Shown here: positions 18,643-47,343 of the stretch, piece by piece
How the letters are laid out: the number at the start of each line of letters is the position of its first letter
Position numbering within the stretch: position 1 is the first letter of the stretch
Source: an uncultured Candidatus Saccharibacteria bacterium
GTDB lineage: Bacteria > Patescibacteriota > Minisyncoccia > UBA6257 > 2-01-FULL-56-20
Direction of reading: 5' to 3'
Assembly: GCA_964374065.1 (NCBI GenBank)
Contig: CAYJWW010000004.1
Coordinates: 1 to 47,343, forward strand
Length of the DNA: 47,343 nt
Translations under genes and position numbers: made by a program
Notes under the pieces: model-generated
Told to the model about the DNA's origin: nothing
Databases searched by the model: none
Seen by the model: the letters and a program-made list of their open reading frames with translations, nothing else

Positions 18643-19295
18643 AGCCGATGATAGAAGTATTCCCCGTAATCAATTGTCCGGATCTGGAGTGTGTCATCAA
18701 AGAGCTCCATCAGTTCGAGAAATTTGCGACGTGGGTTCATTTGGACGTTGCGGACGGCAAGTTTACGTTCCACAAGACATGGAACGAACCTTCGCTATGG
18801 CCGGACCTCAAAAGCAGATTGTCGCTCGAGGTTCATTGCATGGTGGATGATCCCGAGACGCATGCCGCGGCTTGGCTCAAAGCCGGAGCGAAACGCGTGA
18901 TTGTGCATCACGAGGTTCTTTCCGCCGCTTCTGCCGGAAGGATCTTGGATGCGGCGCGAAAGAAGGGGGCGGCGGCGATGATCGCGATAAATCCGGAAAC
19001 GCCCGCAGAGCGGCTCCGTCCGTACTTCAAAGAGTGGCGGGCGTTCCAAGTGCTCTCCGTTCACCCGGGCCTTGCGGGACAGAACTTTCTCCCGCTTGTC
19101 GTGCCGAAGATTTCGTTTTTGCGCCGCGAGATGCCCGATGCGATAATCGAAGTCGACGGGGGTATGAACGAAAAAACCGCACGCCTCGTGCGGGAGGCGG
19201 GAGCAAACGTCATAACTTCTTCCAAGTATGTTCTCGAATCACCCGACTCGCGCAAGGCGTACGACGAATTGCGGAAGGCGCTTGCGCGCGCATGA
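18639..19295 (+). CDS. rpe: ribulose-phosphate 3-epimerase
   Basis: HLDVADGKF...SVHPGLAGQNF...VDGGMN are Rpe TIM-barrel motifs. ATGA overlap with rpiB. Confidence 0.85.
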   Translation: MKPMIEVFPVINCPDLECVIKELHQFEKFATWVHLDVADGKFTFHKTWNEPSLWPDLKSRLSLEVHCMVDDPETHAAAWLKAGAKRVIVHHEVLSAASAGRILDAARKKGAAAMIAINPETPAERLRPYFKEWRAFQVLSVHPGLAGQNFLPLVVPKISFLRREMPDAIIEVDGGMNEKTARLVREAGANVITSSKYVLESPDSRKAYDELRKALARA

Positions 19296-20158
19296 TCATG
19301 GAACCGTTGCACGAAAAAAAACTGCAATTCATCGAGGAGATGGCGAACCGGCTGCGCCGGGACGTGATCGAAATGGTGAAGACAGCCGGTTCCGGCCATA
19401 TCGCCGGACCGTTGGATATGGCGGATATTTTCGCCTCCCTCTATTTTCACGTATTGCAGCATGATCCCAAGAAGCCGGATTGGCCCGACCGCGACCGGGT
19501 CGTGCTCTCAAACGGGCACATTTGCCCCATCCTCTATGCAACGCTCGCCCGCGCGGGATATTTCCCGGTCGAAGAGCTGAAGACGCTTCGGAAGTTCGGC
19601 TCCCGCCTTCAGGGGCATCCGGAGCGAAATGCGCTTCCGGGAGTGGAGACCACCTCCGGGCCTTTGGGCTCCGGCCTTTCGCAGGCGTGCGGCATGGCTC
19701 TTGCCGCGCGGCTTGACGGAAAGAAACGCCGAATCTATTGTCTTATGTCCGATGCGGAGCATCAGGAAGGGAACCTATGGGAGGCGGCGATGTTCGCGGG
19801 GAAGTACCGGCTGAACAACGTGACCGCCGTTATAGACAGGAACAATATCCAAATCGACGGGTTCACCGAGAATGTAATGCCGCTCGAGCCCTTGCGTCAG
19901 AAATATGAAGCGTTCAATTGGCATGTGCTCGAAGTCGATGGGCACAGCCCGGCGGATTTTGTTGCCGCTGTCGCCGAAGCGCACGCGATTTACGAAAAGC
20001 CGACCGCGATCATCGCGCATACGATCGCGGGCAAGGGAGTGAAGTTCATAGAGCGGGATTATCTGTGGCACTCGAAGCCCTTCAAGCCCGGAGAAGCGGA
20101 AAAGGCGCTTGCGGAACTCCGTACGCTTCAGGGGAAGATCGAATCAGAACACCAATAA
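19292..20158 (+). CDS. transketolase, N-terminal (TPP-binding) subunit
   Basis: Internal ATG at 19292 overlaps the rpe stop. ...GSGHIAGPLDMADIF...LSNGH...RLQGHPE...SGPLGSGL are N-terminal transketolase motifs. The track ORF upstream part is out-of-context. Confidence 0.88.
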   Translation: MIMEPLHEKKLQFIEEMANRLRRDVIEMVKTAGSGHIAGPLDMADIFASLYFHVLQHDPKKPDWPDRDRVVLSNGHICPILYATLARAGYFPVEELKTLRKFGSRLQGHPERNALPGVETTSGPLGSGLSQACGMALAARLDGKKRRIYCLMSDAEHQEGNLWEAAMFAGKYRLNNVTAVIDRNNIQIDGFTENVMPLEPLRQKYEAFNWHVLEVDGHSPADFVAAVAEAHAIYEKPTAIIAHTIAGKGVKFIERDYLWHSKPFKPGEAEKALAELRTLQGKIESEHQ

Positions 20159-20195
20159 GTCGAGAAAAAAAGTGAATGGAAGGTCAATAGAAACG

Positions 20196-21155
20196 ATGAC
20201 AGACCAACCGCCCGCACAGGCACCAGCGCAAGCCCCGAAAAGTTCCCCGAAGGACGTCTTTCTCCACCTCTTTGCCATCGGCGCGCTCTATTTTTGCGCG
20301 GGGAGCATTATTGCGCTCGCGTTCTACTATATTGAGGCGGCATTTCCGGATCCGCTGGAATATTCATACCGTCCCGAGAGCCGCATCCGTTGGTCGCTCG
20401 CGCTCTTAACCGTGGTTTTCCCGGCCTATCTGTGGGTTTCCCGTTTTCTCTTTAAGGATCGAGCGGCGAGTCCGGAAAAGAACGAGCTTCGCGTCAGGAA
20501 ATGGCTGGCGTATCTTACGCTGTTCCTCGCCGCGCTTCTCATCATCGGCGACCTTGTTGCGCTTCTCTACAACTTCCTTGAAGGCGAGCTCACCTCGCGA
20601 TTCCTCCTAAAGGTGCTCGCGGTATTCGCGGTGGCGCTTACGGTGTTCTCCTATTACCTCTACGATCTTCGCCGCGGCGCGCAGCCGTTCTCTCCGCGGG
20701 CGCGGTGGGGCATCCGCGCCGCGACCGTTGCGGTATGTATCGTGATCGTCTTCGGATTTATAAGCGCTGGTTCGCCGTTTACACAGCGACTGATCCGCTT
20801 CGACGATCGAAGGGTGAGCGATTTGAGCGAGCTTCAAAGCCGGATCGTGAACTATTGGCGGCAGAAGGGGATGCTTCCGACATCCCTCGATGATCTGAAA
20901 GACAGCATTTCCGGATTTACGCCGCCTGCGGATCCGGAGACGAAGGTTCCGTACGGATATCGCCGCACCGGTGAACTTTCGTTCGAACTGTGCGCCGTGT
21001 TCAATCTGCCCATGGAAGGCGGAAGCGAGCGAGCCCCCGTATACTACGGCGGCTTGAGCGGCAATTGGGAGCACGGATCCGGAATGACATGCTTCTCGCG
21101 CGCGATCGACCCCGAACTGTACGGTTTGCCCGAGAAACCGATGTCGCTGCCGTAA
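20196..21155 (+). CDS. hypothetical integral membrane protein (4-5 TM at the N-terminus plus a Cys-containing C-terminal domain), inserted between the two transketolase subunit genes
   Basis: 319 aa from the ATG at 20196 (the track ORF starts at 20109, overlapping the tkt-N end). Hydrophobic helices at the N-terminus. No recognisable catalytic motif. Confidence 0.55.
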   Translation: MTDQPPAQAPAQAPKSSPKDVFLHLFAIGALYFCAGSIIALAFYYIEAAFPDPLEYSYRPESRIRWSLALLTVVFPAYLWVSRFLFKDRAASPEKNELRVRKWLAYLTLFLAALLIIGDLVALLYNFLEGELTSRFLLKVLAVFAVALTVFSYYLYDLRRGAQPFSPRARWGIRAATVAVCIVIVFGFISAGSPFTQRLIRFDDRRVSDLSELQSRIVNYWRQKGMLPTSLDDLKDSISGFTPPADPETKVPYGYRRTGELSFELCAVFNLPMEGGSERAPVYYGGLSGNWEHGSGMTCFSRAIDPELYGLPEKPMSLP

Positions 21156-21194: not shown

Positions 21195-22187
21195 ATGCCG
21201 CTCGTACCGGAAGCAAAACTGTCGGATAAGCTTTTTGCCGGAGATGTCGAAGAGCGCCCCACGCGCGACGGCTACGGTGAAGGGCTGGTTCAGGCCGGAG
21301 AGGAAAATCCGAACGTTGTGGCGCTGTGCGCCGATCTTGTCGAATCCACCCGCGCCGAAGCGTTCGCGAAAAAGTTTCCCGACCGGTTTTTCGAATGCGG
21401 CGTGGCGGAGCAGAATATGGCGACCGTGGCTGCGGGCTTGGGCATCTCGGGAAAGATCCCGTTCATTTCCTCATATGCGAACTTTTCGCCCGGCAGGAGC
21501 TGGGAGCAGGTGAGAACCACGATCTGCGTCAACGATTCCAACGTGAAAGTAGCCGGGCACCATGCGGGAATTTCCGTGGGACCAGATGGCGCGACGCACC
21601 AGGCGACCGAAGACATCGCCATCATGCGCGTCCTGCCGAACATGAAGGTTGTGGTGCCGTGCGATGCGGTGGAAGCGCGGAAGGCGACGGTTGCGGCGGC
21701 CCGCATCTGGGGGCCGGTGTATCTTCGTTTCGCCCGCGAGAAATCGCCGGTTATGACGACCGCAGAAACTCCGTTTACGCCGGGGAAGGCGGAAGTGTTT
21801 TGGAGGTCGCCGAAACCGGGGGTATTGCTCGTGGGGTGCGGACCGGTCCTCCACCAAGCGCTTCTTGCGGCTCGTGAATTGGAGAAGGAAAAAATCGGCA
21901 GCGTGGTTTTGAATTGCCATACGGTAAAACCAATAGACGAGGAAACCGTTTCCATGTGGGCCGGGAAAGCCGGCGCCGTAGTTTCCGTGGAAGAGCATCA
22001 AATTTTTGGAGGCCTAGGAGGGGCGTTAGCCGAGCTTCTTGCCTCGGTGAATCCGATGCCCGTCGAGTTCGTCGGTCTTCGGGACACGTACGGGAAGTCG
22101 GGCCCGCCCGCGGTGCTTGCGGCGGCATTCGGCATGACCGCGAAGGAAATCGTCCGTGCGGCAAAGAAGGCGATCAGGAGAAAGTAA
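21195..22187 (+). CDS. transketolase, C-terminal (pyrimidine-binding/C-terminal domain) subunit
   Basis: ...FFECGVAEQNM...GPDGATHQATEDIAIMRVLPNM... matches the transketolase central and C-terminal domains. Confidence 0.88.
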   Translation: MPLVPEAKLSDKLFAGDVEERPTRDGYGEGLVQAGEENPNVVALCADLVESTRAEAFAKKFPDRFFECGVAEQNMATVAAGLGISGKIPFISSYANFSPGRSWEQVRTTICVNDSNVKVAGHHAGISVGPDGATHQATEDIAIMRVLPNMKVVVPCDAVEARKATVAAARIWGPVYLRFAREKSPVMTTAETPFTPGKAEVFWRSPKPGVLLVGCGPVLHQALLAARELEKEKIGSVVLNCHTVKPIDEETVSMWAGKAGAVVSVEEHQIFGGLGGALAELLASVNPMPVEFVGLRDTYGKSGPPAVLAAAFGMTAKEIVRAAKKAIRRK

Positions 22188-28617: not shown

Positions 28618-30033
28618 ATGAAATACTACCTCACCGCCGCGATTCCTTACGTGAACGCGAAGCCGCATCTCGGGCATGCGCTGGAATTCATTCAAGCGGA
28701 TGTGGTCGCGCGCTATCACAAAGCGTTAGGAGAAGACGTTTTTTTTGTCTCCGGCGCGGACGAGAACTCCCTGAAGAACGTCCAGGCAGCGGAGCAGGCT
28801 GGAATTTCCGTCCAAGAGCTGTGCGATAAGAACACGGAAGCCTTTATTGCGCTCGCCGCGGCTCTTCATATTGGCTTCAGCGGGTTCATGCGGTCGTCGA
28901 GCGATGAACATATCCGCTCGAGTCAAGAACTTTGGGAGCGGTGCGACAACGCAGGGGATATCTATAAAAAGGCGTACCGGGGGCTCTACTGCGTGGGGTG
29001 CGAAGCTTTTTATACGAAAGATGAATTAAGCGAGGCAGGCGAGTGTTTCGAGCATCCCGGGAAAAAACTGGAAGAAGTGGAGGAAGAGAACTACTTCTTC
29101 CGTCTCTCCAAGTACCAATCGCGCCTCGAGGCGCTCATTCGCGCCGACGGGTACCGGATCCTGCCTGAAGGGAGAAAAAAGGAGGCGCTCGAATTCATTA
29201 AGCGGGGGCTCGAGGACTTCAGCATCTCCCGCTCGAAAGCTCGCTCGCACGGTTGGGGGGTGCCGGTCCCGAAGGACCCCACCCAGATCATGTATGTGTG
29301 GTTCGACGCCTTAAATGTGTACCGTTCCGCCGCTCGGGACCGGTGGCCCGCGGATCTCCACATCATCGGCAAGGGCATCCTCCGTTTCCATGCCGTCTAC
29401 TGGCCGGCGATCCTTCTTTCTGCCGGAATCCCGCTGCCGAAGGAGCTTTTCGTGCACGGCTACGTGACCGCTGACGGCCAAAAGATGTCGAAGACGGTGG
29501 GGAATGTGGTGGACCCGATGGATCTTATCTCGCGCTACGGCGCGGACGCGGTGCGCTACTACTTTCTGCGCGAAATCCCGCCGTACGACGACGGTGATTT
29601 TTCGGAAAAGAAGTTTAAGGATCGGTACAACGCCGACCTTGCGAACGGGCTGGGGAATTTAGTCAGCCGCACGCTCAAGATGGCGGCGGATTACAGGGTT
29701 CGGCTGGAAGTCGACAAAGGGTATGCCGAGTCGGTTCTACGAATGAATTCGGACACGTATGCGAAATGCCTTCGCGCATATGATTTTCAGAAAGCGATCG
29801 AACTCGTATGGTGGCAGATCGGAGCGTGTGACGCATACATCGATCGAACACAACCATTTAAAGTCGCCAAAACCGATCGGGATACCGCCGGAGAATACGT
29901 GAAAAAGGTGCTCGCAGATCTGTATCTCATCGGATTATGGCTTCGTCCGTTCTTGCCCGGGACGAGCGAGGTCATCCTCGCGTCCATCGAGCAAGGCGCT
30001 GTGTCGCAGCCGCTTTTCCCGCGGGTTTCATAG
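28618..30033 (+). CDS. metG: methionine--tRNA ligase (short form, no C-terminal tRNA-binding domain)
   Basis: Class I aaRS with PYVNAKPHLGHA (HIGH) and KMSKT. A CVGCEAF...CFEHPG zinc knuckle is present. 471 aa. Confidence 0.9.
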   Translation: MKYYLTAAIPYVNAKPHLGHALEFIQADVVARYHKALGEDVFFVSGADENSLKNVQAAEQAGISVQELCDKNTEAFIALAAALHIGFSGFMRSSSDEHIRSSQELWERCDNAGDIYKKAYRGLYCVGCEAFYTKDELSEAGECFEHPGKKLEEVEEENYFFRLSKYQSRLEALIRADGYRILPEGRKKEALEFIKRGLEDFSISRSKARSHGWGVPVPKDPTQIMYVWFDALNVYRSAARDRWPADLHIIGKGILRFHAVYWPAILLSAGIPLPKELFVHGYVTADGQKMSKTVGNVVDPMDLISRYGADAVRYYFLREIPPYDDGDFSEKKFKDRYNADLANGLGNLVSRTLKMAADYRVRLEVDKGYAESVLRMNSDTYAKCLRAYDFQKAIELVWWQIGACDAYIDRTQPFKVAKTDRDTAGEYVKKVLADLYLIGLWLRPFLPGTSEVILASIEQGAVSQPLFPRVS

Positions 30034-30058
30034 CTAAGTCCCAAAGTCTAAGTCCCAA
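30034..30058 (+). repeat. tandem direct repeat CTAAGTCCCAA x2 (3-nt spacer) filling the metG–tatD gap; the second copy abuts the tatD ATG
   Basis: Copies at 30034-30044 and 30048-30058. The tatD ATG is at 30058-30060. Confidence 0.8.
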
Positions 30059-30936
30059 TGTCCACTCCCTTCTTCGACGCGCACACCCATGTACAATTCG
30101 CGGCCTACGATGCCGATCGCGAAGAGGTCATTCGGCGCGCGCAGGATGCCAATGTATGGATGATGAATGTCGGAACGAGTCTTAAGACGTCCGAGGCGGC
30201 GGTCTCTCTCGCGAACCGCTTTGAGAAGGGGATATATGCGGCGGCCGGCATCCATCCGGTGCACGCCACGCGTTCTTTCTATGACATGGAAGAGCTTGGT
30301 GCGTCGGACGATGCAAAAGCGCTCTCGGAACATGGCGAAGTATTCGCCCCCGCGTCATACCGCACGCTTGCGGGGGACCCAAAGACGGTGGCAATAGGCG
30401 AGTGCGGCCTCGACTACTTCCGGCTCGAAGGGGATCTGGAAGAGATAAAAGCGAAGCAGCGCGCGATGTTTGAGGCGCAAATCGAATTCGCACACGAGGT
30501 CCGGAAGCCATTGATGATCCACTGCCGCGCCGCATTCCGCGATTTGATCGACACACTAAAAGAGAATAGATCAAAGCTCAAAACTAGCTCCCCCGGCGTG
30601 ATCCATTTCTTTTCCGGCTCTCTCGAAGAAGCGAAACAGCTCCTTGAGATGGGCTTCGCATTCACGTTCGGGGGGGCGATCACGTTCCCGCCGAGAAAAG
30701 GGGAATCCATAGGGACTTACGATGAGGTCGTCCGCTATCTGCCGCTCGAGGCGATCCTTTCCGAAACCGACGCGCCGTATGTGGCGCCTGTTCCGTATCG
30801 CGGCAAACGGAACGAGCCGGCGTATGTGGTCGAAGTCGTGCGCAGGCTCGCCGAGCTCAAGGCAATCGAGGCGGAAGAAATGGAAAAGCGTATTTTCGAG
30901 AACGCGAGACACATCTTCGGGATCGCGCCGGCCTAG
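30058..30936 (+). CDS. tatD: TatD-family metal-dependent hydrolase/DNase
   Basis: DAHTHV...IGECGLDY...MIHCR... are TatD motifs. metG–tatD adjacency is conserved in several bacteria (metS–yabD in Bacillus). Confidence 0.88.
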   Translation: MSTPFFDAHTHVQFAAYDADREEVIRRAQDANVWMMNVGTSLKTSEAAVSLANRFEKGIYAAAGIHPVHATRSFYDMEELGASDDAKALSEHGEVFAPASYRTLAGDPKTVAIGECGLDYFRLEGDLEEIKAKQRAMFEAQIEFAHEVRKPLMIHCRAAFRDLIDTLKENRSKLKTSSPGVIHFFSGSLEEAKQLLEMGFAFTFGGAITFPPRKGESIGTYDEVVRYLPLEAILSETDAPYVAPVPYRGKRNEPAYVVEVVRRLAELKAIEAEEMEKRIFENARHIFGIAPA

Positions 30937-31743: not shown

Positions 31744-34584
31744 ATGAAGTATCACTTCCGTCAAATAGAGCAGAAGTGGCAGAAAAGATGGCTTGAAGAA
31801 AAGTCGTTTCAGGCGCGCGAAGATTCGGGAAAGCCGAAGTACTACCAGCTTGAGACGTTTCCGTATCCTTCCGCCGAAGGACTGCATGTGGGGCACCCGA
31901 AGGGATATATCGCCGAAGACATTCACGCGCGTTATATGCGCATGAACGGCCGCGAAGTGCTCTACACGATGGGGTGGGATGCGTTCGGTCTCCCTACGGA
32001 AAACTACGCCTTAAAAATAGGAAAGACACCGAACGAGGTTGCCAAAGCGAATGTGGCAAACTTTAAGCGACAAGTGCGCATGTTCGGGCTTTCGTACGAC
32101 TGGGACCGCGAGATCAACACTTCAACCCCCGAGTATTACAAGTGGACCCAGTGGCTTTTTATCCAATTTTTCAAGAAAGGCCTTGCGTATCAAGCGAGTG
32201 CGAACGTAAATTGGTGCCCGAACTGCGAAACGGTGCTCGCGAACGAGCAGGTGGAAGGCGGCGCGTGCTGGCGCTGCAACACCCCCGTCGTGCAGAAGCA
32301 GATGGAGCAGTGGTTCTTGAAGATCACCGACTACGCAGAGCGCCTTCAGGCCGACCTCAAGGGGCTCGATTGGCCGGAGGCGACGATCAAACGCCAAAGA
32401 GATTGGATAGGAAAATCAGAGGGAGCCCTTCTTGAGTTCCCGATTCAAGATTCAAGTTTCAGGGTTCGGGTATTCACCACGCGGCCGGACACGCTTTTCG
32501 GCGCGACGTTCATGGTCTTGGCGCCCGAGCATCCCTTAATCGAAAATTTGAAATTGAAAATTGAAAATTGGGGCGAAATCCAGAAGTACATCGAACAAGC
32601 GCGGCATAAAACCGAGCTTATGCGGAAGGAGGAACGGGAGAAAACGGGATTGGAGCTCAAGGGGGTCAAAGCGATGAATCCGGCCACGAAAGAAGAGATT
32701 CCTATTTTCATCGCCGATTACGTGCTCATGGGCTACGGCACGGGAGCGGTCATGGGCGTGCCCGCGCACGACGAGCGGGACTACGAGTTCGCGAAAAGGC
32801 ATGAGCTCCCGATGCGGACCGTCGTAGAGCCCCTCTATACACAAAGCAGGGAGCCGGGAAAGATCGCGGAGGGAGTGCCGTTTGATGAACGCGATGCCAT
32901 CATTGCGATCGTGAAGCACTGGTCCGAGGAGAAGTATATGGCGCTTAAGTGGAAGAAAGTCGCGTGGGGAACCTTCCTCACGGGCGGCGTTGAGAAAGGT
33001 CAGACGGCGGAAGAGGCGGCCAAGGCGGAGATCAAGGAAGAAACGGGGTACCTCAATCCCGCGCTCGTGAAGGATTTCGGCATCATTCATGGTAAATTTT
33101 ACCACGTCCCGAAGAACGTGAACCGGTTCGCTCATGCCCGCGTGCTTTATTTTGAACTGCGCGATGATGCGCAAGGGGATATCTCGGACGAGGAGCGGCA
33201 GATTCACGAGATATTGTGGCTCTCGACCGAAGAACTCGCGAAATTTCTGACCCCCGATACCCACCAGCATGCGTTGCGGATGTTTCTCGGCACGCAGGGA
33301 GCGTATGAGGGCGAAGGGGTTTTGACGAACTCCGGCGAGTTCAACGGAATGGACACCGGAACAGGGAGGTGGGAGATTGCGAAATTCGTCGGCGGCGCGC
33401 GGAGAATCCAATATAAAATCCGCGATTGGTCCGTCTCGCGGCAGCGGTACTGGGGCGTGCCGATCCCGATGATCCACTGCGCGACCTGCGGCGCGGTTCC
33501 GGTGCCCGAGAGCGACCTCCCGGTGCTTCTTCCCAAAGATGTGGATTATCGTCCGAAGGGCAAGCCGCCGCTTGCGAGCTCGGAAAAATTCATGAACGTG
33601 AAGTGTCCGAAATGCGGCGGCGAAGCGCGCCGGGATCCGGAGACGCTCGATACGTTCGTTGATTCTTCTTGGTATTACCTGCGCTACACGGATCCGAAGA
33701 ACGAAAAGGAGATCTTCAATAAGGATAGCGCGGCCCACTGGCTGCCGGTTGACCTTTACGTGATCGGCGCGGAGCATACCGTGCTCCATCTGCTGTATTC
33801 CCGGTTTATCACGAAATTCTTGTACGACGAAGGATACGTGAGTTTCACGGAGCCGTTCACAACGCTTCGGCATCAAGGGCTCGTGTTGGGCGCGGACGGG
33901 CAGAAGATGTCCAAATCGAAGGGAAACGTGGTGAACCCCGACGACCTTATCGCGGAGTTCGGGGCGGATACCGTGCGCCTTTATGAGATGTTCATGGGGC
34001 CCTTCGAGAACGGCCAGCCGTGGGATCCGCAGGGAGTTTTGGGCACGCACCGGTTCCTCCATCGTTTTTGGAGTTTTATGAGAGAGCGGATCTCGAGTTC
34101 TGATTTCGCGAGTGCGGAGACGCCGCGAATTCAGCGGGCCGCGGTTCATAAGGGTATCAAGAAAGTGGGGGAGGATATCGCCGGCTTCAAATTCAACACG
34201 GCCGTTTCGTCTTTGATGATACTTTTAAACGAGCTGGAAGGAGCGGCGATCGGGAAAAGAGACGTCGAAGCGGTGCTAAAGCTCCTGCATCCGTTCGCGC
34301 CGCATGTCGCTCAAGAACTCTGGGAAATGGCCGGGTACAATACCATTCTCGATTTCGAAGCGTGGCCGGCGCATGATCCGGACCTTATCGTCAAAGCGAC
34401 ATTCCGGCTCGTCATTCAGATAAACGGAAAAGTCCGCGATACTGTCGAAGCGCCCGCGGGCGTTTCCGAGGAGGAAGCCGCACGCCTCTCGCTTCAAAGT
34501 GCGCGTGTGACGCGCGCACTGGGAGGGATAAAGCCCCGCAAGGTGATTTACGTCAAAGATCGCCTTATCAACTTTGTTCTGTGA
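31744..34584 (+). CDS. leuS: leucine--tRNA ligase carrying an inserted Nudix-fold domain after the CP1 editing domain
   Basis: HVGH, TTRPDTLFGATF, GTGAVMGVPAHDERDYEFA, NSGEFNG, RDWSVSRQRYWGVPIP and KMSKSKGN are in LeuRS order. 946 aa, with ~155 extra aa between EFA and NSGEFNG. Confidence 0.93.
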   Translation: MKYHFRQIEQKWQKRWLEEKSFQAREDSGKPKYYQLETFPYPSAEGLHVGHPKGYIAEDIHARYMRMNGREVLYTMGWDAFGLPTENYALKIGKTPNEVAKANVANFKRQVRMFGLSYDWDREINTSTPEYYKWTQWLFIQFFKKGLAYQASANVNWCPNCETVLANEQVEGGACWRCNTPVVQKQMEQWFLKITDYAERLQADLKGLDWPEATIKRQRDWIGKSEGALLEFPIQDSSFRVRVFTTRPDTLFGATFMVLAPEHPLIENLKLKIENWGEIQKYIEQARHKTELMRKEEREKTGLELKGVKAMNPATKEEIPIFIADYVLMGYGTGAVMGVPAHDERDYEFAKRHELPMRTVVEPLYTQSREPGKIAEGVPFDERDAIIAIVKHWSEEKYMALKWKKVAWGTFLTGGVEKGQTAEEAAKAEIKEETGYLNPALVKDFGIIHGKFYHVPKNVNRFAHARVLYFELRDDAQGDISDEERQIHEILWLSTEELAKFLTPDTHQHALRMFLGTQGAYEGEGVLTNSGEFNGMDTGTGRWEIAKFVGGARRIQYKIRDWSVSRQRYWGVPIPMIHCATCGAVPVPESDLPVLLPKDVDYRPKGKPPLASSEKFMNVKCPKCGGEARRDPETLDTFVDSSWYYLRYTDPKNEKEIFNKDSAAHWLPVDLYVIGAEHTVLHLLYSRFITKFLYDEGYVSFTEPFTTLRHQGLVLGADGQKMSKSKGNVVNPDDLIAEFGADTVRLYEMFMGPFENGQPWDPQGVLGTHRFLHRFWSFMRERISSSDFASAETPRIQRAAVHKGIKKVGEDIAGFKFNTAVSSLMILLNELEGAAIGKRDVEAVLKLLHPFAPHVAQELWEMAGYNTILDFEAWPAHDPDLIVKATFRLVIQINGKVRDTVEAPAGVSEEEAARLSLQSARVTRALGGIKPRKVIYVKDRLINFVL

Positions 34585-34611: not shown

Positions 34612-35499
34612 ATGCAAGGAGCATTCGTGATTTTAGGGATACTCGCGCTCCTCATTGTCGGCGGTTTAGTTATCGGTGTGCAGGGCCCAGCTCCTCGGGA
34701 GCCCGTTTTCGTTTCCACGAGCACCATTCCCGCGGCGCAGGGGGGCCAGCCAAGACAGTTGGCGGCGCCCTCGGCGCCCGCCGCGCAGCCGCCGTCAGAT
34801 CCGCCTCCGACGGATATTCCGCCGGGATTTACCGCGTCGCAAATCTCAACCCATTGGCGCAAGGTTCGCGTCGGAAACCCATATCGGTATGGAACGGGAA
34901 TCGATGCGTACCGCCACATGACTCTCTCTTCACTGGTTCCGCAAGGTGAAACCTTGTCGCTCGGGGGATGGAAGCTCAAGGGAGGCGGAGGAGAAGCGAC
35001 GATCCCCGCCGCCATTGCAACATACTCCCCGACCGGGTCGGGAGAGGAACGGCCGATCGCTCTGGGAGCAGGGGATACGGTCTTCATCTATTCATCTCGG
35101 AGCCCCTTGGCGAAAGGTTTTCGGATGAATAAGTGCATGGGGTACCTTGAAAAGGTATACCAGTTCAAGCCGGCGCTTCCGCTCGCGTGCCCCGCGCCGT
35201 ATCGCGACCGTTCGGAGGTCGCAAAGTTCCCCCTAAAATGCCAGGATCATATTCTCTCGCTTCAGGCCTGCGGGCTACCCTCCATACAAACGGACGACAG
35301 TGCGTGCGCCTCGTTCTTGGCGAAGATCAACTATGGCGGTTGTTTTGAAAAATATCGCGGCGACGCCGATTTCTTTTCCAAAGAGTGGCGCGTTTTTCTT
35401 GGAGATCAAAGCGGCGAGCGGGATATCGCAAGCCCTGCCCGCGGGTTTTTGGAACTCTACGACGCGGAGGGGAAACTCGTGGATCAGTACGTATATTAG
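34612..35499 (+). CDS. hypothetical secreted/membrane-anchored protein with a lamin-tail-like (LTD) domain and a Cys-rich C-terminal region
   Basis: N-terminal TM/signal region, a Pro-rich linker, GETLSLGGWKL...DTVFIYSS as in LTD domains, and a C-terminal region with 8 Cys. Confidence 0.55.
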   Translation: MQGAFVILGILALLIVGGLVIGVQGPAPREPVFVSTSTIPAAQGGQPRQLAAPSAPAAQPPSDPPPTDIPPGFTASQISTHWRKVRVGNPYRYGTGIDAYRHMTLSSLVPQGETLSLGGWKLKGGGGEATIPAAIATYSPTGSGEERPIALGAGDTVFIYSSRSPLAKGFRMNKCMGYLEKVYQFKPALPLACPAPYRDRSEVAKFPLKCQDHILSLQACGLPSIQTDDSACASFLAKINYGGCFEKYRGDADFFSKEWRVFLGDQSGERDIASPARGFLELYDAEGKLVDQYVY

Positions 35500-38781: not shown

Positions 38782-38817
38782 CCCCCGCCTTTCGGAGTGC
38801 GAAAGGCGGGGGATTTT
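38782..38817 (+). terminator. intrinsic terminator with a 13-bp perfect stem (CCCCCGCCTTTCG-gagtg-CGAAAGGCGGGGG) followed by ATTTT
   Basis: The arms at 38782-38794 and 38800-38812 are exact reverse complements. Located 7 nt after the MFS stop. Confidence 0.7.
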
Positions 38818-38823
38818 CATATA

Positions 38824-39741
38824 ATGGACTCTATGCGCCACAGCCGAAGCGGGAAGTTAAGCTCCAAAAAGCGTTATCTGCAGGTCGCGCTGAACGGCAC
38901 CATTTCCGATGCGCGGGAGATCATTTGGTCGCTCCCCGTAAGCGACCGGATCCTCATTGAAGCGGGCACCCCGCTCATCAAGCGGTACGGGGAAGAGGGG
39001 ATACGGGAAATACGGGAACTCTACGAAGCGCACGTTTCGGGCGAGCGCGCCGCCGTTCGAGCTCCGTCGCCCGGCGTTCTCCATCGAACGTTCATATTCA
39101 CCGCGCTCGAGAAACTTGCGGCCCAAGCAGAGGCGCGCAAGGAGGGAGATTTCGAAGAAGAATCCGGGCCCTCTCCGGAGGAGGAGTTGGGAGGGCAAAG
39201 CTACGAAAGCAGCGAAGGGGACTTCGGCCCGCAGAGACAAGGCGGCGAAGAAGCGCGGGAGATCCACCCATATGTGGTCGCCGACTTGAAGACGATGGAC
39301 CGCGCGGAAACCGAGGTCGCAATGGCGGCCCGCGCAGGCGCCTCTGCCGCGATCGCGCTCGGGAGCGCTCCCGTTGAAACCTTGGATTCTTTCATTGAGC
39401 AGTGCGAGGCGCACGGCATGGATGCCATGGTGGACATGATGAACGTGGAATTCCCGCTCGGCGTTTTGGGCGCCCTGAAGCGCGCGCCGCCCGTCGTAAT
39501 CCTTCACCGCGGTGTGGATGAGGAAAAATTCAATAGGGAAAAACAGATCCCGCTCCATGAGATCAGGCGGATCAAAGGAAGGTACGACGTCATGATCTCT
39601 ATCGCGGGAGGAGATACGCTCCGCGAGGTTCAGCGTTCCGTGTTCAACGACGCCGACATCGTGGTGGTATGGAAATCCGTATTTCAAAAGACCGCCGAAA
39701 CCGCCGCGCTTGTCGAGGGATTCCTTCGGGAAATCAAATAG
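38824..39741 (+). CDS. 3-hexulose-6-phosphate synthase-like (OMP-decarboxylase-fold) protein with an internal acidic low-complexity insertion; start uncertain (38824 or 38833)
   Basis: KRYLQVALNGT...ILIEAGTPLIK...VVADLKTMD...LHRGVDEE...SIAGG aligns to HPS/KGPDC family motifs. A ~75-aa Glu/Ser/Pro-rich insertion is present. The track GTG start at 38797 lies inside the terminator stem. Confidence 0.7.
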   Translation: MDSMRHSRSGKLSSKKRYLQVALNGTISDAREIIWSLPVSDRILIEAGTPLIKRYGEEGIREIRELYEAHVSGERAAVRAPSPGVLHRTFIFTALEKLAAQAEARKEGDFEEESGPSPEEELGGQSYESSEGDFGPQRQGGEEAREIHPYVVADLKTMDRAETEVAMAARAGASAAIALGSAPVETLDSFIEQCEAHGMDAMVDMMNVEFPLGVLGALKRAPPVVILHRGVDEEKFNREKQIPLHEIRRIKGRYDVMISIAGGDTLREVQRSVFNDADIVVVWKSVFQKTAETAALVEGFLREIK

Positions 39742-44552: not shown

Positions 44553-47343
44553 CTATGGGCGTTTGGTTCCGGATTCGGTATCGGGCAGTGTTTCATCCCT
44601 CCGGATTGCGGCGAGCGTCCGATTGAATTGGGTTTCCGGATCCGGACCGAGGCCGCCCACCAGGCCGTACTTGAAGATGATGAAATATGAAGCGATCGAG
44701 CTCACGAAGCCGATGAGGAAGATCCACGGGAGCGCGTCTTCGGGTCCGGTCACGATATCCGCGACGCCCAAGACTTGCCCGCGAGGCCGGACGTTCACCG
44801 TTGCGAATGCGTTTGACACGCCCGCATTCATAGTAGCACTTATCTGGTTCGTGGTAGTGCGCGGCGTCGTCCCCGTAAGCACGGTCGCGCGGAAGCGGAT
44901 CGCCTTTTCTTCATTCGAAGCGACGGTTCCCAAGGAAAGCCCCGAGGCGGCGATGCCGTCAGGAGCCACGTTGTTGTTTATCGTCGTCGAACCGGGGACG
45001 TATGAGAGTTCCTGCGGGAGAATATCCCGAACGATGATCTGGCCGGCGGATGTGTCGGTGTTCCGCACGCGGATCTCGAACTCAACGGTATCTCCGCCCT
45101 GTGCCTCGATCGAGTTCGAATACGCGGTTTGGTTCAATGTCCGGTTCAATCCGGCTTTCGTGATAAGAAGTCTGGCGGGCGTCCCAACGGTCGTAGTCAC
45201 GAACACCGTTTCCGAGTCATTCGCTACGCCGTTTTGATTTGAGCAGGTGATGCTATAGGTGGTGGTGAGGCTCGGAGAGGTCTGTTCCGACCCCGAGAGC
45301 GCTTTAGACCCGGACCATCCGCCCGATGCGGTGCACTGAGCTGCGTTCGCAGACGTCCATGTGAGTATCGAGGATTGCCCCTGCGCAATGCTCGAAGGCG
45401 AAGTCGCGAGATTCACCGTCGGCTGGAACGCGCTCACGAACACCGTTGCTTGCGCGGAGACGGAGCCTCCGGAGCCGCTGCAATTCATGGAATATGTCGT
45501 TGTCTGCGCGGGGAACACGGTTTCGTTGCCGGAGACGTTTCGTGATCCAGACCAGCCGCCGGAGGCGGTGCAGGAAGTCGTGTTCGTCGAAGTCCATGTA
45601 AGGATCGACGAGCCGCCCTGCGAGATACTTGTCGGATTCGCGTTCAGCGTAAGCGTCGGCTGATTCTGAACCACGCTCACCGTGACGGTGGCGTTCGCCT
45701 GCACCTGCTGGCCGGTCTGGTTCTGGCAGACGATGGTATAGGCGGTCGTTGAAAAGGGATTTATCGTTTCGCTGCCGGATAGATTTTTCGTTCCGGACCA
45801 GCCGCCCGCCGCGCTGCAGGTCGTGGCGTTCGTCGAGCTCCACGTCAAGACCGAGGATTGTCCCTGGGTGATCGTGGTCGGACTTGCGGCGAGCGTGACC
45901 GTCGGAGCCGGCGGTTGATTGACGTTAATGGTTACCGAATCGGTCCCGCTGCCTCCCGCACCGGCGCACTGAACCGTATAGGTCCGCGAAGAGGTGAGCG
46001 CCCCGGTCGATTGCGAGCCGGACGTACCCGTGAATCCCGAGGGGAATACGGTGCACGAGGTCGCATTTTGCGAAGTCCACGTGAGCGTTGCCGACGCATT
46101 GTGGTCGATATTTACGGGGCCATCGGAGCCGTTCGCTTTGATGTCCGCCGTCACCTGGGGAACATTTCCCACGTTCACGACGACCGAGTCCGTCGCTGTT
46201 CCGCCCTGCCCGCTGCAATTGAGGAAATATGTTTGCGAGAACGTCAGATTCCCCGTCGACTGCGACCCCGAGGCGCCCGTCCACCCGGTGGGCGAGACGC
46301 TGCAGGTCGTGGCGTTCGTGGAGGTCCATGTGATCGTGGCGAAAGCGTTGAAATTGATGGTTATCGGACCATCTTGGTTGTTCGCTTTGATGTCAGCCGT
46401 CACCTGTGGGGCATTGCTTACATTTACCGTCACCGAATCGGTAGCCGAACCGCCCGGGCCGTTGCAGGTCAGGGTGTACGTTTGCGAGCTTGCGAGATTC
46501 CCCGTGGACTGCGAACCGGAAGTACCCGTCCAGCCGGTGGGCGAGACGCTGCAGGTGGTCGCGTTCTGCGAGGTCCAGCTTATCGTCGCCGAAGAGTTGA
46601 AGGTGACGGTCACGGGGCCGTCCTGGCCATTGGCTTTGATATCGGCGGTTACATTTCCTGCCTGCACGTTTATCGTCACCGAGTCAGTCGCGTTACCGCC
46701 CGGGCCGGTGCAATTTACCGTATAGGTCTGCGAGTTTGTGAGATTTCCAGTAGACTGCGAGCCGCTCGTACCCGACCAGCTGCCTGGAGTGACCATGCAC
46801 GAAGTCGCGTTCTGCGAGGTCCACGAGATGGTCGCGGATTGCCCCGACTGGATCGTGACGGGCCCGTCCTGGCCGTTCGCCTTGATGTCGGCGGTTATAT
46901 TGCCCGCCTGCACGTTTACCGTCACCGAGTCAGTCGCGTTACCGCCCGGACCAGTGCAGTTCAAGGTGTATGTCTGTGAACTTGTGAGGCCTCCGGTCGA
47001 CTGCGAGCCCGATGTGCCTGACCAGCCGGTCGGCGAGACGGAACACGATGTCGCGTTCGAGGAGATCCAGCTTATGGTCGCTGAAGTCCCCGATTGAATC
47101 GTGATCGGCCCGTCTTGCCCATTCGCCTTAATGTCGGCAGTTACGTTCCCTGCCTGAATATTCACCGTTACCGAATCCACCGCCGACCCTCCTGGGCCGC
47201 TGCAGTTTAAGGTGTACGTTTGCGATGCCGTGAGGTTCCCCGTGGACTGCGAACCGCTCGTGCCCGTCCACCCGGTGGGCGAGACGGAGCACGAAGTCGC
47301 GTTCTGCGAGGTCCACGAGATGGTCGCGGATTGCCCCGACTGG
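44553..47343 (-). CDS. giant repetitive surface protein (5' end beyond window): five or more ~82-aa Ig-like repeats, three ~80-aa variant repeats, a DUF11/'conserved repeat domain', and a C-terminal TM
   Basis: The reading frame stays open to the window edge; the track ORF starts at an internal GTG at 47180. Repeats share ...ATISWTSQNATSCxVSPTGWSGTSGSQSTGNLTSSQTYTLNCTGPGG. GDTVEFEIRVRNTDTSAGQIIVRDILPQELSYVPGST is DUF11-like. A TM helix sits near the C-terminus. Confidence 0.75.
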   Translation of the reverse strand, partial: QSGQSATISWTSQNATSCSVSPTGWTGTSGSQSTGNLTASQTYTLNCSGPGGSAVDSVTVNIQAGNVTADIKANGQDGPITIQSGTSATISWISSNATSCSVSPTGWSGTSGSQSTGGLTSSQTYTLNCTGPGGNATDSVTVNVQAGNITADIKANGQDGPVTIQSGQSATISWTSQNATSCMVTPGSWSGTSGSQSTGNLTNSQTYTVNCTGPGGNATDSVTINVQAGNVTADIKANGQDGPVTVTFNSSATISWTSQNATTCSVSPTGWTGTSGSQSTGNLASSQTYTLTCNGPGGSATDSVTVNVSNAPQVTADIKANNQDGPITINFNAFATITWTSTNATTCSVSPTGWTGASGSQSTGNLTFSQTYFLNCSGQGGTATDSVVVNVGNVPQVTADIKANGSDGPVNIDHNASATLTWTSQNATSCTVFPSGFTGTSGSQSTGALTSSRTYTVQCAGAGGSGTDSVTINVNQPPAPTVTLAASPTTITQGQSSVLTWSSTNATTCSAAGGWSGTKNLSGSETINPFSTTAYTIVCQNQTGQQVQANATVTVSVVQNQPTLTLNANPTSISQGGSSILTWTSTNTTSCTASGGWSGSRNVSGNETVFPAQTTTYSMNCSGSGGSVSAQATVFVSAFQPTVNLATSPSSIAQGQSSILTWTSANAAQCTASGGWSGSKALSGSEQTSPSLTTTYSITCSNQNGVANDSETVFVTTTVGTPARLLITKAGLNRTLNQTAYSNSIEAQGGDTVEFEIRVRNTDTSAGQIIVRDILPQELSYVPGSTTINNNVAPDGIAASGLSLGTVASNEEKAIRFRATVLTGTTPRTTTNQISATMNAGVSNAFATVNVRPRGQVLGVADIVTGPEDALPWIFLIGFVSSIASYFIIFKYGLVGGLGPDPETQFNRTLAAIRRDETLPDTESGTKRP
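45180..47343 (-). repeat. in-frame tandem coding repeats, period 246 nt (type A) and ~240 nt (type B)
   Basis: Example: 46798-46851 and 47290-47343 are 54/54 identical (two periods apart). Repeated protein motifs are listed in the CDS entry. Confidence 0.85.

Follow-up and report, generated by a model that had tools for sequence, protein, structure and literature searches.

Aminoacyl-tRNA synthetases (aaRSs) are among the most conserved enzymes. To our knowledge, an extra catalytic domain within a bacterial aaRS is rare, and the cases studied led to editing, signalling, or resistance biology. The window analyzed in the present study, a stretch of 47,343 nucleotides from an uncultured Candidatus Saccharibacteria bacterium, contains a leucyl-tRNA synthetase (LeuRS) gene in which the original prediction placed a Nudix-fold domain between the end of the CP1 editing domain and the conserved VLTNSGEFNG block. 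The locus raises the questions of whether this insertion is genuine, whether the inserted domain is catalytic, and why it resides in a synthetase.

The leuS gene and its inserted domain

The leuS ORF (31744..34584, + strand, as are all features described below) encodes 946 aa plus a stop and is uninterrupted in the ORF list. In an NCBIfam profile scan, the ORF matched TIGR00396 (leuS_bact) with 983.2 bits (cutoff 548.4; E 1e-295), and the match was broken into two stretches near aa ~368. The class I catalytic site carries the HIGH-type signature HVGH (31885..31896, aa 48-51), the KMSKS signature lies at 33904..33918 (aa 721-725), and the LeuRS block RDW.VSRQRYWG is present as RDWSVSRQRYWG (aa 560-571); all three were invariant in alignment A1 (75 sequences). 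The pre-insert part of CP1 (32398..32814, aa ~219-357) was recognized by PF13603 of Pfam with 203 bits, aa 219-367 corresponding to profile positions 1-146 of 185. It contains the T-rich motif TTRPDT (32476-32493, aa 245-250) and the motif GTG...AHDERD (32737-32781, aa 332-346), of which T245, T246, R247, T250, D343, R345, and D346 were invariant across the 75 sequences of A1, with inserts present or absent. After the insert, the protein completes CP1 and passes back into the catalytic core (GVLTNSGEF ... RDWSVSRQRYWG; 33310..33456, aa 523-571), and this part formed the second PF13603/TIGR00396 stretch. The full-length AlphaFold model (pLDDT 91.3, pTM 0.81) matched the LeuRS of Thermus thermophilus and Escherichia coli in Foldseek with E values of 1e-81 to 1e-76, among them the structures 2BTE (E 1.5e-81) and 4AQ7 (TM 0.77/0.85). 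Judged from its motifs, the LeuRS of the window is functional-looking, with the synthetic site and the editing site both intact.

The inserted domain occupies 32815..33309 (aa 358-522), as delimited by an alignment to insert-free relatives and by the AlphaFold model. It begins 12 residues past the editing aspartate D346, and the junctions read ...HELPM|RTVVEP... and ...AYEGEG|VLTNSG.... The spacing from HDxRD to NSGxF is 192 aa in the LeuRS of the window versus 32-78 aa in insert-free relatives. The segment originally proposed, 32839-33309, had the correct end; however, its start lay 8 codons inside the true domain. PF00293 (NUDIX) matched that segment (aa 366-522) with 48.6 bits (E=1e-12, gathering cutoff 21.1) over profile positions 12-125 of 134, and the predicted model and structure comparison confirmed an α/β/α sandwich of the Nudix type. 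The nearest structural neighbor was 2AZW, followed by ApnA hydrolases (Rv2985, Ndx1, and aq_158), DIPP/DDP1, and decapping-type Nudix proteins. The Pfam and AlphaFold checks suggested with the original prediction thus both upheld it. A six-frame motif scan of the window matched the Nudix box of leuS and no second one. We concluded that a complete, autonomous Nudix domain sits in a variable surface loop of the CP1 editing domain.

The unusual architecture and its patchy distribution would be the only hints of an artefact, whether a chimeric assembly, an intein, or a mobile element that interrupts leuS. However, a search of homologous LeuRS covered the 120 closest clusters, which derive from many samples and assemblers, and 76 of them had a Nudix domain at the identical junction; the same junction was seen in three GTDB genomes. 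The reading frame is continuous, the composition of the insert matches that of the rest of leuS (GC 0.562 vs 0.555; GC3 0.703 vs 0.695), and the AlphaFold confidence is high over both junctions (pLDDT 89-94). The recurrence in independent assemblies and the host-like GC and GC3 ruled out an assembly chimera or recent foreign DNA. An intein or mobile element was rejected because the junctions are without splice motifs (an N-terminal Cys/Ser and a C-terminal His-Asn plus Cys/Ser/Thr) and the fold is Nudix, not Hint. We regard the probability of an artefact as negligible, and the chimera is a genuine, in-frame insertion within an otherwise complete LeuRS.

A conserved variant of the Nudix box

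The Nudix box, GGVEKGQTAEEAAKAEIKEETGY, is located at 32983..33051 (aa 414-436; six-frame motif scan) and reads G414-GVEKG-Q420-TAEEAAK-A428-E429-IK-E432-E433-TG-Y436. It fails the strict GX5EX7REUXEEXGU consensus at two positions, Q420 (canonical E) and A428 (canonical R), and keeps the REUXEE glutamates E429, E432, and E433, exactly as the original prediction had read it. That prediction also called the box degenerate, and in this respect it did not hold. Among free-standing homologues gathered by a profile search (n=116), Q was found in 116 of the 116 retrieved, and the Arg position was filled by A, M, V, or other residues, a pattern indicative of purifying selection on this form of the box. 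We therefore rejected a decaying box: the covarying Q420/A428 pair is a conserved signature of a clade, here called Q-type, to which the insert belongs. At the junction of the window, 49 of the 76 LeuRS inserts have a fully canonical box.

The columns E72 and E76 of alignment A3 (E429 and E433 in the window) were invariant in its 95 sequences, as were Q63, K100, N103, R104, E127, and H131. Since the catalytic glutamates are invariant, the inserted domain is probably active. In approximately 15% of Q-type members, the EE pair has also lost its first Glu (EQETG), a variant that hints at relaxed metal binding. Downstream of the box, KFYHVPKNVNRFAH (aa 451-464) and E484...H488...W492 (together 33094..33219) were invariant or nearly so in alignments A2 and A3, and these columns are common to the Q-type and canonical-type consensus. 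They are candidate substrate-binding or second catalytic-acid positions.

Distribution in LeuRS and as free-standing genes

The Nudix family of the insert is small: an exhaustive HMM search over 1.84 billion cluster representatives retrieved 305 clusters at E<=1e-10. Hosts were assigned for the best 150 of these 305 clusters (50%-identity), with at least 37% identity to the LeuRS core as the criterion for LeuRS. In this set, at least 101 clusters were within LeuRS, at least 5 more were LeuRS editing-domain fragments, and 36 were free-standing; one member was within a class II ProRS. By identity to the LeuRS core, none of the best 150 of 305 clusters had an IleRS- or ValRS-like host. IleRS and ValRS possess a homologous CP1.

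LeuRS–Nudix chimeras are widespread in Patescibacteria (CPR bacteria), and such entries already stand unremarked in public protein databases. Four insertion sites were found in LeuRS in all: the Nudix junction of the window and three others with Ham1/ITPase, HAD, α/β-hydrolase (Ser_hydrolase), or ASCH domains. A single LeuRS has up to three Nudix copies, and the largest stacks in related LeuRS comprise four extra hydrolase domains (three Nudix with HAD, or three Nudix with α/β-hydrolase). LeuRS cores 67-70% identical to that of the window show every state, with no insert, a Q-type or a canonical domain, and with or without Ser_hydrolase. Automated annotation was misled by these genes: free Nudix proteins were labelled 'leuS', and LeuRS proteins appear under the names 'class I tRNA ligase family protein' or 'NTP pyrophosphatase'. 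The confusion of automated annotation is thus a practical consequence of these chimeras. We found no paper describing a LeuRS–Nudix chimera, in agreement with the original prediction, and the chimera is apparently undescribed in the literature.

The Q-type clade occurs in four arrangements with respect to leuS. As a separate gene, it lies either upstream of leuS at a distance of 46-60 bp (P0002/L004 and P0003/L006-8) or in the chromosomal slot that leuS::Nudix occupies in other genomes (P0004). The other two arrangements are insertions in LeuRS, one at site ~208 and one at site B. On long contigs, the free-standing members examined are mostly unlinked to leuS (e.g., L012 and L014), and the many unlinked members indicate that the enzyme clearly works without LeuRS. 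At the loci of two other Q-type chimeric leuS genes, no partner Nudix or hydrolase gene was found beside leuS, and only the gene order DUF5671 - leuS - Sigma70_r4 was kept. The loci L002, L004, and L006 have a Q-type Nudix, free or embedded, and a separate Nudix ~1 kb from leuS. The separate protein carries a W.PKGH.E.GE motif and matches aq_158, Ndx1, CT771, and NUDT2 with E values of 1e-14 to 3e-7.

Possible functions and relation to known systems

Our preferred explanation, which we hold with slightly better than even confidence, is that a Patescibacteria-specific, active Nudix pyrophosphohydrolase has been inserted into an intact LeuRS, that it acts on a polyphosphate-bearing nucleotide, and that its association with the synthetase is selected. 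The domain would be a metal-dependent pyrophosphohydrolase using E429, E432, E433, and the downstream conserved E484, and its substrate may be an NTP, an NpnN, or a 5' end that is polyphosphorylated or capped. We propose this class of substrate because the structural neighbors include ApnA hydrolases, DIPP/DDP1, and decapping-type proteins, and the weak sequence neighbors are RppH, NudI, and NudB. The physical tie to an aaRS would be selected rather than accidental because the family is concentrated in LeuRS, the clade lies at or near leuS in four arrangements, one host is ProRS, and no host is IleRS- or ValRS-like among the clusters assigned. Such a tether may equip the aaRS with nucleotide clean-up and ensure co-expression and 1:1 stoichiometry. 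Several observations speak against the explanation: the closest solved structure, 2AZW, is uncharacterized, the EQETG variant occurs in the Q-type clade, many free copies are unlinked to leuS, LeuRS of this lineage have taken up unrelated hydrolases at other sites, and the insert states are patchy among LeuRS cores equally (67-70%) identical to that of the window.

The same family may instead be an ordinary house-cleaning Nudix that hitch-hikes on a permissive scaffold, has no mechanistic link to leucylation, and gains only co-expression; we consider this possible, but doubtful. Small hydrolase genes of the streamlined Patescibacterial genomes would have been fused repeatedly into tolerant surface loops of LeuRS, an enzyme expressed constitutively and at a high level. 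That the four insertion sites accommodate five hydrolases of unrelated fold (Nudix, Ham1, HAD, α/β Ser_hydrolase, and ASCH) fits such a history, as do the lack of linkage to leuS in most free-standing members examined on long contigs and the mixture of all architectures among closely similar LeuRS cores. Nudix, Ham1, and HAD are reportedly classical house-cleaning families. The unrelated hydrolases at other sites and the patchy insert states are both compatible with a merely permissive scaffold. However, approximately two-thirds of the Nudix family clusters are in LeuRS (best 150 of 305) and no IleRS- or ValRS-like host was seen among them, the Q-type clade adjoins leuS and occupies two LeuRS sites and one ProRS, and the inserted folds are non-random, being small hydrolases that are mostly nucleotide-directed. 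A bolder view, which we regard as distinctly unlikely, is that the LeuRS of Patescibacteria (and occasionally ProRS) is a modular platform on which nucleotide or ester hydrolases mounted near the editing site extend the quality control of the synthetase itself. The Nudix domain would then act in cis on species generated by the synthetase, such as mis-activated aminoacyl-adenylates, Np4N by-products, or non-canonical analogues of ATP, and may provide an extra, previously unknown proofreading or clean-up step within an aaRS. This speculation draws on the seemingly selected association with aaRSs, the attachment of the domain 12 residues away from the editing Asp, and the conserved catalytic glutamates.

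One proposal of the original prediction, a coupling to Ap4A, would make the domain a hydrolase that destroys the dinucleoside polyphosphates arising in the synthetase side reaction of aa-AMP with ATP. ProRS is among the aaRSs reported as efficient Ap4A makers, and ApnA hydrolases are said to carry a Tyr 16-18 residues after the box; in the window, Y453 lies at +17. The best PDB sequence match of the insert was CT771, which is given as an asymmetric Ap4A hydrolase where PMC5526541 cites it (Barta 2014). However, the similarity is marginal (CT771 E 0.014, aq_158 E 0.39) and the structural similarity second-tier, an A3 profile search matched only NudI and NudB, and many Q-type and most canonical-type members have Phe at position 453. 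Moreover, the separate Nudix ~1 kb from leuS in L002, L004, and L006 is a far better Ap4A-hydrolase match, with E values of 1e-14 to 1e-11 to Ap4A/Ap6A hydrolases, so an Ap4A hydrolase candidate is already there and the specific Ap4A idea is weakened. We found no specific support for the coupling, and that the domain is dedicated to Ap4A hydrolysis is less likely than originally held; we judge it unlikely. A non-catalytic sensor, in which the domain only binds a nucleotide ligand in the manner of NrtR and allosterically tunes editing or aminoacylation, would account for the replaced box residues (E→Q, R→A) and for EQ in place of EE in ~15% of Q-type members, which remove metal-site residues, and for the location 12 residues from the editing Asp. 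We consider a sensor very unlikely since the equivalents of MutT-E53 and MutT-E57 (E429 and E433) are invariant across 95 family members, canonical boxes occur in 49 of the 76 inserts at this junction, and stand-alone 160-aa proteins of the clade, which have no partner domain to regulate, are abundant. Activity on RNA ends, resembling RppH or decapping enzymes and directed at the 5' end (triphosphate, NAD, or Np4N cap) of bound tRNA-Leu or other RNA, is in our estimation scarcely probable. CP1 handles the tRNA acceptor end, RppH and decapping-type Nudix effectors were among the structural matches, and RppH models were the best NCBIfam neighbors (the canonical LeuRS insert of L004 matched at 8e-10 and P0153 at 2.6e-6). 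However, the RppH scores were far under the cutoffs (at most 39 bits versus 116-259 over the family models); with the PRK00714 models, the window insert scored 19.8 bits against cutoffs of 118-139 and the canonical insert of L004 38.8 bits. Free-standing copies are also common, and the retention of 5' triphosphates on tRNAs in these organisms is unsupported.

If the association is functional, it newly connects tRNA charging with the quality control of nucleotides in minimal-genome organisms reliant on salvaged nucleotides. If the domain is only hitch-hiking, the chimera is still a clear natural domain insertion in an essential enzyme and maps insertion-tolerant loops of LeuRS.

The closest relatives of the insert are free-standing Patescibacterial Q-type proteins of ~160 aa, such as P0002, P0003, P0004, and P0153, which are 52-57% identical to the whole insert, including the N-terminal strand (EP.[FY].Q..EPG) and the C-terminal helix. 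They share the GQT...[A/M]E..EETGY box and the K..NR and E...H...W motifs; however, they are separate genes, and 'NUDIX hydrolase / MutT family' is their only annotation. Among solved structures, the closest is 2AZW, a MutT/Nudix protein of Enterococcus faecalis from structural genomics, which differs from the insert in being a stand-alone protein with 18-19% identity that the sequence search missed. Unlike the insert, aq_158 (3I7U, Aquifex aeolicus), Ndx1 (1VC8, T. thermophilus), Rv2985 (9CXX, Mycobacterium tuberculosis), and CT771 (4ILQ/4MPO, Chlamydia trachomatis) have a canonical box. Their sequences show no significant similarity to that of the insert, and the separate Nudix in related loci is far closer to them. 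The family NF040702 of NCBIfam (isoleucine--tRNA ligase, N-acetyltransferase domain-containing) similarly joins a bacterial class Ia synthetase to an unrelated enzyme domain. However, its host is IleRS and its passenger GNAT, it matched the window protein only via the shared synthetase core, and it is an analogy by model name, not a relative. In animals, Ap4A made by LysRS is degraded in trans by the Nudix enzyme NUDT2. This axis resembles the LeuRS–Nudix chimera in that an aaRS is functionally paired with a Nudix hydrolase, whereas it involves separate proteins, a different aaRS, and eukaryotic signalling.

The leuS gene and its inserted Nudix domain

The leuS ORF (31744-34584, + strand) is uninterrupted in the ORF list and encodes 946 aa. 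Its product scored 983 bits on the NCBIfam bacterial leucine-tRNA ligase equivalog model (cutoff 548), with the match broken into two stretches at approximately residue 368. The full set of LeuRS signatures was found in the expected order: HVGH (aa 48-51), the T-rich editing motif TTRPDT (aa 245-250), the GTG...AHDERD editing motif (aa 332-346), the LeuRS signature RDWSVSRQRYWG (aa 560-571), and KMSKS (aa 721-725). Residues 366-522 (window 32839-33309) matched Pfam NUDIX (PF00293; 48.6 bits, E=1e-12, gathering threshold 21.1) and no other Pfam family, which bore out the original prediction of a Nudix insert in LeuRS. An alignment to insert-free relatives placed the domain from R358 to ~G522 (window 32815-33309, + strand). 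The predicted end of the insert was correct, whereas its predicted start was 8 codons inside the domain. We concluded that LeuRS is intact and that a complete Nudix domain is anchored 12 residues past the editing Asp346. GC was 0.562 in the insert vs 0.555 in the remaining gene, and GC3 was 0.703 vs 0.695. Intein motifs were not present at the insert junctions.

The AlphaFold2 model of the full-length protein, generated from a 75-sequence alignment, had a mean pLDDT of 91.3 and a pTM of 0.81. As a whole, it matched the LeuRSs of T. thermophilus (2BTE, E 1.5e-81) and E. coli (4AQ7, TM 0.77/0.85). Residues 360-525 had pLDDT values of 89-96, and the order of their strands and helices was that of a Nudix sandwich, in agreement with the predicted fold. 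The structural neighbours of the insert were the diadenosine-polyphosphate hydrolases Rv2985, Ndx1, and aq_158, as well as DIPP/DDP1, decapping-type Nudix effectors, MutT1, NudI, NudB, and RppH. These solved relatives are distant by sequence; the top single-sequence match to the insert was CT771 (E 0.014), and the Nudix family profile detected only NudI and NudB among solved structures (~5e-5 to 1e-4).

The window is an ordinary segment of Patescibacterial chromosome. Its genes are ordered fusA, tuf, secY, gap, a split transketolase, DUF5671, pfkB, fba, an SLT-domain protein, an M16 peptidase, an AI-2E transporter, metG (28618-30033), tatD (30058-30936), an NTP-transferase, and leuS, followed by a 295-aa ORF (34612-35499, + strand) directly downstream of leuS and then by htrA on the minus strand; three tRNA genes are also present. 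A motif scan of the window did not reveal a Nudix box other than that of leuS. The N- and C-terminal transketolase genes (18872-20158 and 21195-22187, + strand) are separated by the DUF5671 gene (20109-21155), and DUF5671 is also located directly upstream of the leuS-Nudix fusion in the related loci L017 and L018. The 295-aa ORF and an 875-aa ORF (44553-47180, - strand) did not match any Pfam family at E<=1e-4. A 537-aa antisense ORF (32536-34149, - strand) lies wholly within leuS; it most likely arises from the high GC3 (0.70) of the sense strand and is not a gene. The Pfam match of an OMP-decarboxylase-family protein (38797-39741, + strand) covers aa 151-300 only, leaving ~150 N-terminal residues outside; the listed start codon, GTG, may have been placed too far upstream.

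Distribution of the insertion and variation of the Nudix box

A search with the full protein returned an identical NCBI sequence (P0006) and thousands of LeuRSs, and the top matches, where named, were from Patescibacteria, Paceibacterota, or Parcubacteria MAGs. We aligned the 120 top LeuRS matches to an insert-free LeuRS of 831 aa (P0069), in which the insertion junction, site B, corresponds to positions ~370-390. A Nudix domain was found at exactly this junction in 76 of the 120. The same insert also occupies the same position in three GTDB genomes (one labelled Parcubacteria and two labelled Saccharimonadales/Saccharibacteria). Since the junction recurs in these relatives and genomes, an assembly chimera was ruled out. 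In one of the 120 matches, P0125 (1137 aa), Ham1 is inserted, and site B, which houses Nudix in other relatives, contains a remnant of 63 aa that may be a decayed insert.

The window box reads G414-GVEKG-Q420-TAEEAAK-A428-E429-IK-E432-E433-TG-Y436. The box is fully canonical (E...RE..EE) in 49 of the 76 site-B inserts. In 25 others, Q replaces the first Glu, and the Arg position is occupied by A, M, Q, or, in a single case, R. Of the remaining two, one carries a D/K box and the other was unreadable by the search pattern. Searching with a profile built from Q-type domains, namely, the clade with Gln for the first box Glu, yielded at least 156 proteins at E<=1e-10. Those listed as new, 116 in number, were without exception free-standing (151-227 aa) and had Q at the first-Glu position; the Arg position was A in 79 and M in 16, with V, E, R, T, I, or S in the rest. 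In a 95-sequence alignment of the family, the invariant residues were E429 and E433 (E72 and E76 of the alignment, equivalent to MutT E53 and E57), Q420 (Q63), K457, N460, and R461 (K100, N103, and R104), and E484 and H488 (E127 and H131). Approximately 15% of Q-type members have EQETG in place of EEETG. In an NJ tree of 94 domains, the Q-type sequences formed one clade nested among the canonical LeuRS inserts. The conservation of the Q-type box and its single clade indicate that the Q/A pair is a conserved variant under selection, and a decaying box was ruled out by the Q in 116/116 free-standing homologues and this clade. The original prediction was correct regarding the E-to-Q and R-to-A changes and the retained EIKEETG, but not regarding degeneracy; the pair is a clade signature.

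Related LeuRSs also carry other domains. Site ~236 holds an α/β Ser_hydrolase (PF06821), Ham1/ITPase (PF01725), or ASCH (PF04266), site ~208 one or two additional Nudix domains, and site ~496 HAD (PF13419), with up to four extra hydrolase domains in some LeuRSs (1518-1558 aa). Relatives with further inserts include P0007, P0010, P0016, P0044, P0046, P0109, and P0125. In LeuRSs of 1164-1558 aa, a Q-type domain is located at site ~208, mostly in tandem with a canonical Nudix, and site B is canonical, so that one protein can contain as many as three Nudix domains. In the 75-sequence alignment, the editing and synthetic motifs were invariant with or without inserts.

Free-standing relatives and other hosts

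The three closest free-standing relatives, P0002, P0003, and P0004, are 52-57% identical to the insert across its whole length, N-terminal strand and C-terminal helix included, and all three show a connection to leuS. P0002 is 60 bp upstream of a leuS with its own canonical site-B Nudix (L004), and P0003 precedes, by 46 bp, a leuS that lacks a site-B insert (L006-L008). P0004 (L009:247-744) is upstream of a Sigma70_r4/HARE-HTH gene (L009:819-1670). The orthologue of the latter, with 51% identity (E 1e-101), comes next after the leuS-Nudix fusion in the large Q-type LeuRS clade (L017:8001-11919 and L018:8001-11962); because these downstream genes are orthologous, P0004 fills the slot held elsewhere by leuS. 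Among the remaining free-standing Q-type members, those on long contigs lie away from leuS. In L012 (4400-4996 and 5001-5486; also L013), only 4 bp separate a HAD-family hydrolase gene from the free-standing Q-type gene directly downstream of it, P0153, and HAD is also a domain type inserted in LeuRS. The LeuRS of L006 (L006:914-3763, 949 aa), which lacks a site-B Nudix, has a ~130-aa insert near site ~236, and its editing motif lies in an altered context (GDIHDERD); this insert had no match among precomputed Pfam assignments.

The Nudix family profile was run as an HMM exhaustively against 1.84 billion cluster representatives and detected 926 clusters at E<=1e-3, of which 305 reached E<=1e-10 and 98 reached E<=1e-30. 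Among the best 150, 101 were LeuRSs or LeuRS fragments (all but a few short fragments aligned with the LeuRS core over >400 aa at an identity of at least 37%), 36 were free-standing (<=230 aa), and 13 were classified as other, with at least five more LeuRS editing-domain fragments and one tandem-Nudix fragment. Another of these 13, P0379 (643 aa; L016:2906-4837, on an AT-rich metagenome contig), is a class II prolyl-tRNA synthetase in which a Nudix from this family separates the anticodon-binding and C-terminal domains; the Nudix box, GGQDNLDIKEAAQKEIIEETGY, is a D/K variant. The CP1 of IleRS and ValRS is homologous to that of LeuRS. Judged by identity to the LeuRS core, no IleRS- or ValRS-like host was seen among the best 150 clusters.

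Possible function and novelty

We infer that the Nudix insert is an active pyrophosphohydrolase because its catalytic glutamates are invariant and the clade is kept as a stand-alone protein. Its substrate may be a nucleotide with a polyphosphate chain, as suggested by the structural neighbours and the conserved basic cluster (K457, R461, and H488). The original prediction suggested that the insert could hydrolyse Ap4A or related dinucleotides made by the synthetase. This coupling is possible, but is weakened by the Saccharimonadia-type loci L002, L004, and L006, in which a Q-type Nudix is present and a separate Nudix is encoded ~1 kb away from leuS (L006:4528-5025, L004:12698-13201, and L002 near 8794); the genes there run leuS, small ORF, nusB, Nudix, and rnc. 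The separate Nudix has the motif W.PKGH.E.GE (W.IPKGHIEEGE...RE..EETGL) and matches aq_158, Ndx1, CT771, and human NUDT2 with E values of 1.4e-14 to 3e-7, which places it much nearer to known ApnA hydrolases than the insert family is. With E values of 1e-14 to 1e-11 against solved Ap4A/Ap6A hydrolases, the nusB-rnc Nudix is a better candidate for the Ap4A hydrolase than the LeuRS insert.

The association of this Nudix with aminoacyl-tRNA synthetases appears to have been selected: approximately two-thirds of the cluster diversity of the family is in LeuRS, and the clade adjoins leuS, occupies two LeuRS sites, and has a ProRS host. Under the main alternative, LeuRS would simply be a permissive scaffold with constitutive expression, and house-cleaning hydrolases would hitch-hike on it. 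Such a scaffold would account for the variety of inserted folds and for their patchy states; LeuRS cores with 67-70% identity to that of the window protein have no insert, Ser_hydrolase only, a Q-type Nudix, or a canonical Nudix. However, it leaves the strong LeuRS bias of the Nudix family and the ProRS host unexplained. NJ trees of the Nudix domain and the LeuRS core disagree on the placement of the window protein, which hints at the gain, loss, or exchange of inserts.

Public databases already list chimeric proteins together with precomputed Pfam matches, and LeuRS-Nudix chimeras give rise to annotation errors. Two free Nudix proteins of 157 aa carry the name 'leuS' in NCBI records, and misnaming was noted among the database names of P0147, P0152, P0036, P0020, and P0030. 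The name 'non-canonical purine NTP pyrophosphatase' is attached to one chimeric LeuRS, and many are simply 'class I tRNA ligase family protein'. A full-text literature search of incomplete coverage found no paper on a LeuRS-Nudix chimera or on insertions in CPR LeuRS, in keeping with the original prediction, which knew of no described chimera. The chimera is real and widespread, would surprise a specialist in aminoacyl-tRNA synthetases, and is directly testable. LeuRS and Nudix as components, and aminoacyl-tRNA synthetases with accessory domains, were already known; the insertion of a hydrolase inside CP1 and the use of LeuRS as a multi-hydrolase scaffold appear to be a new variant.
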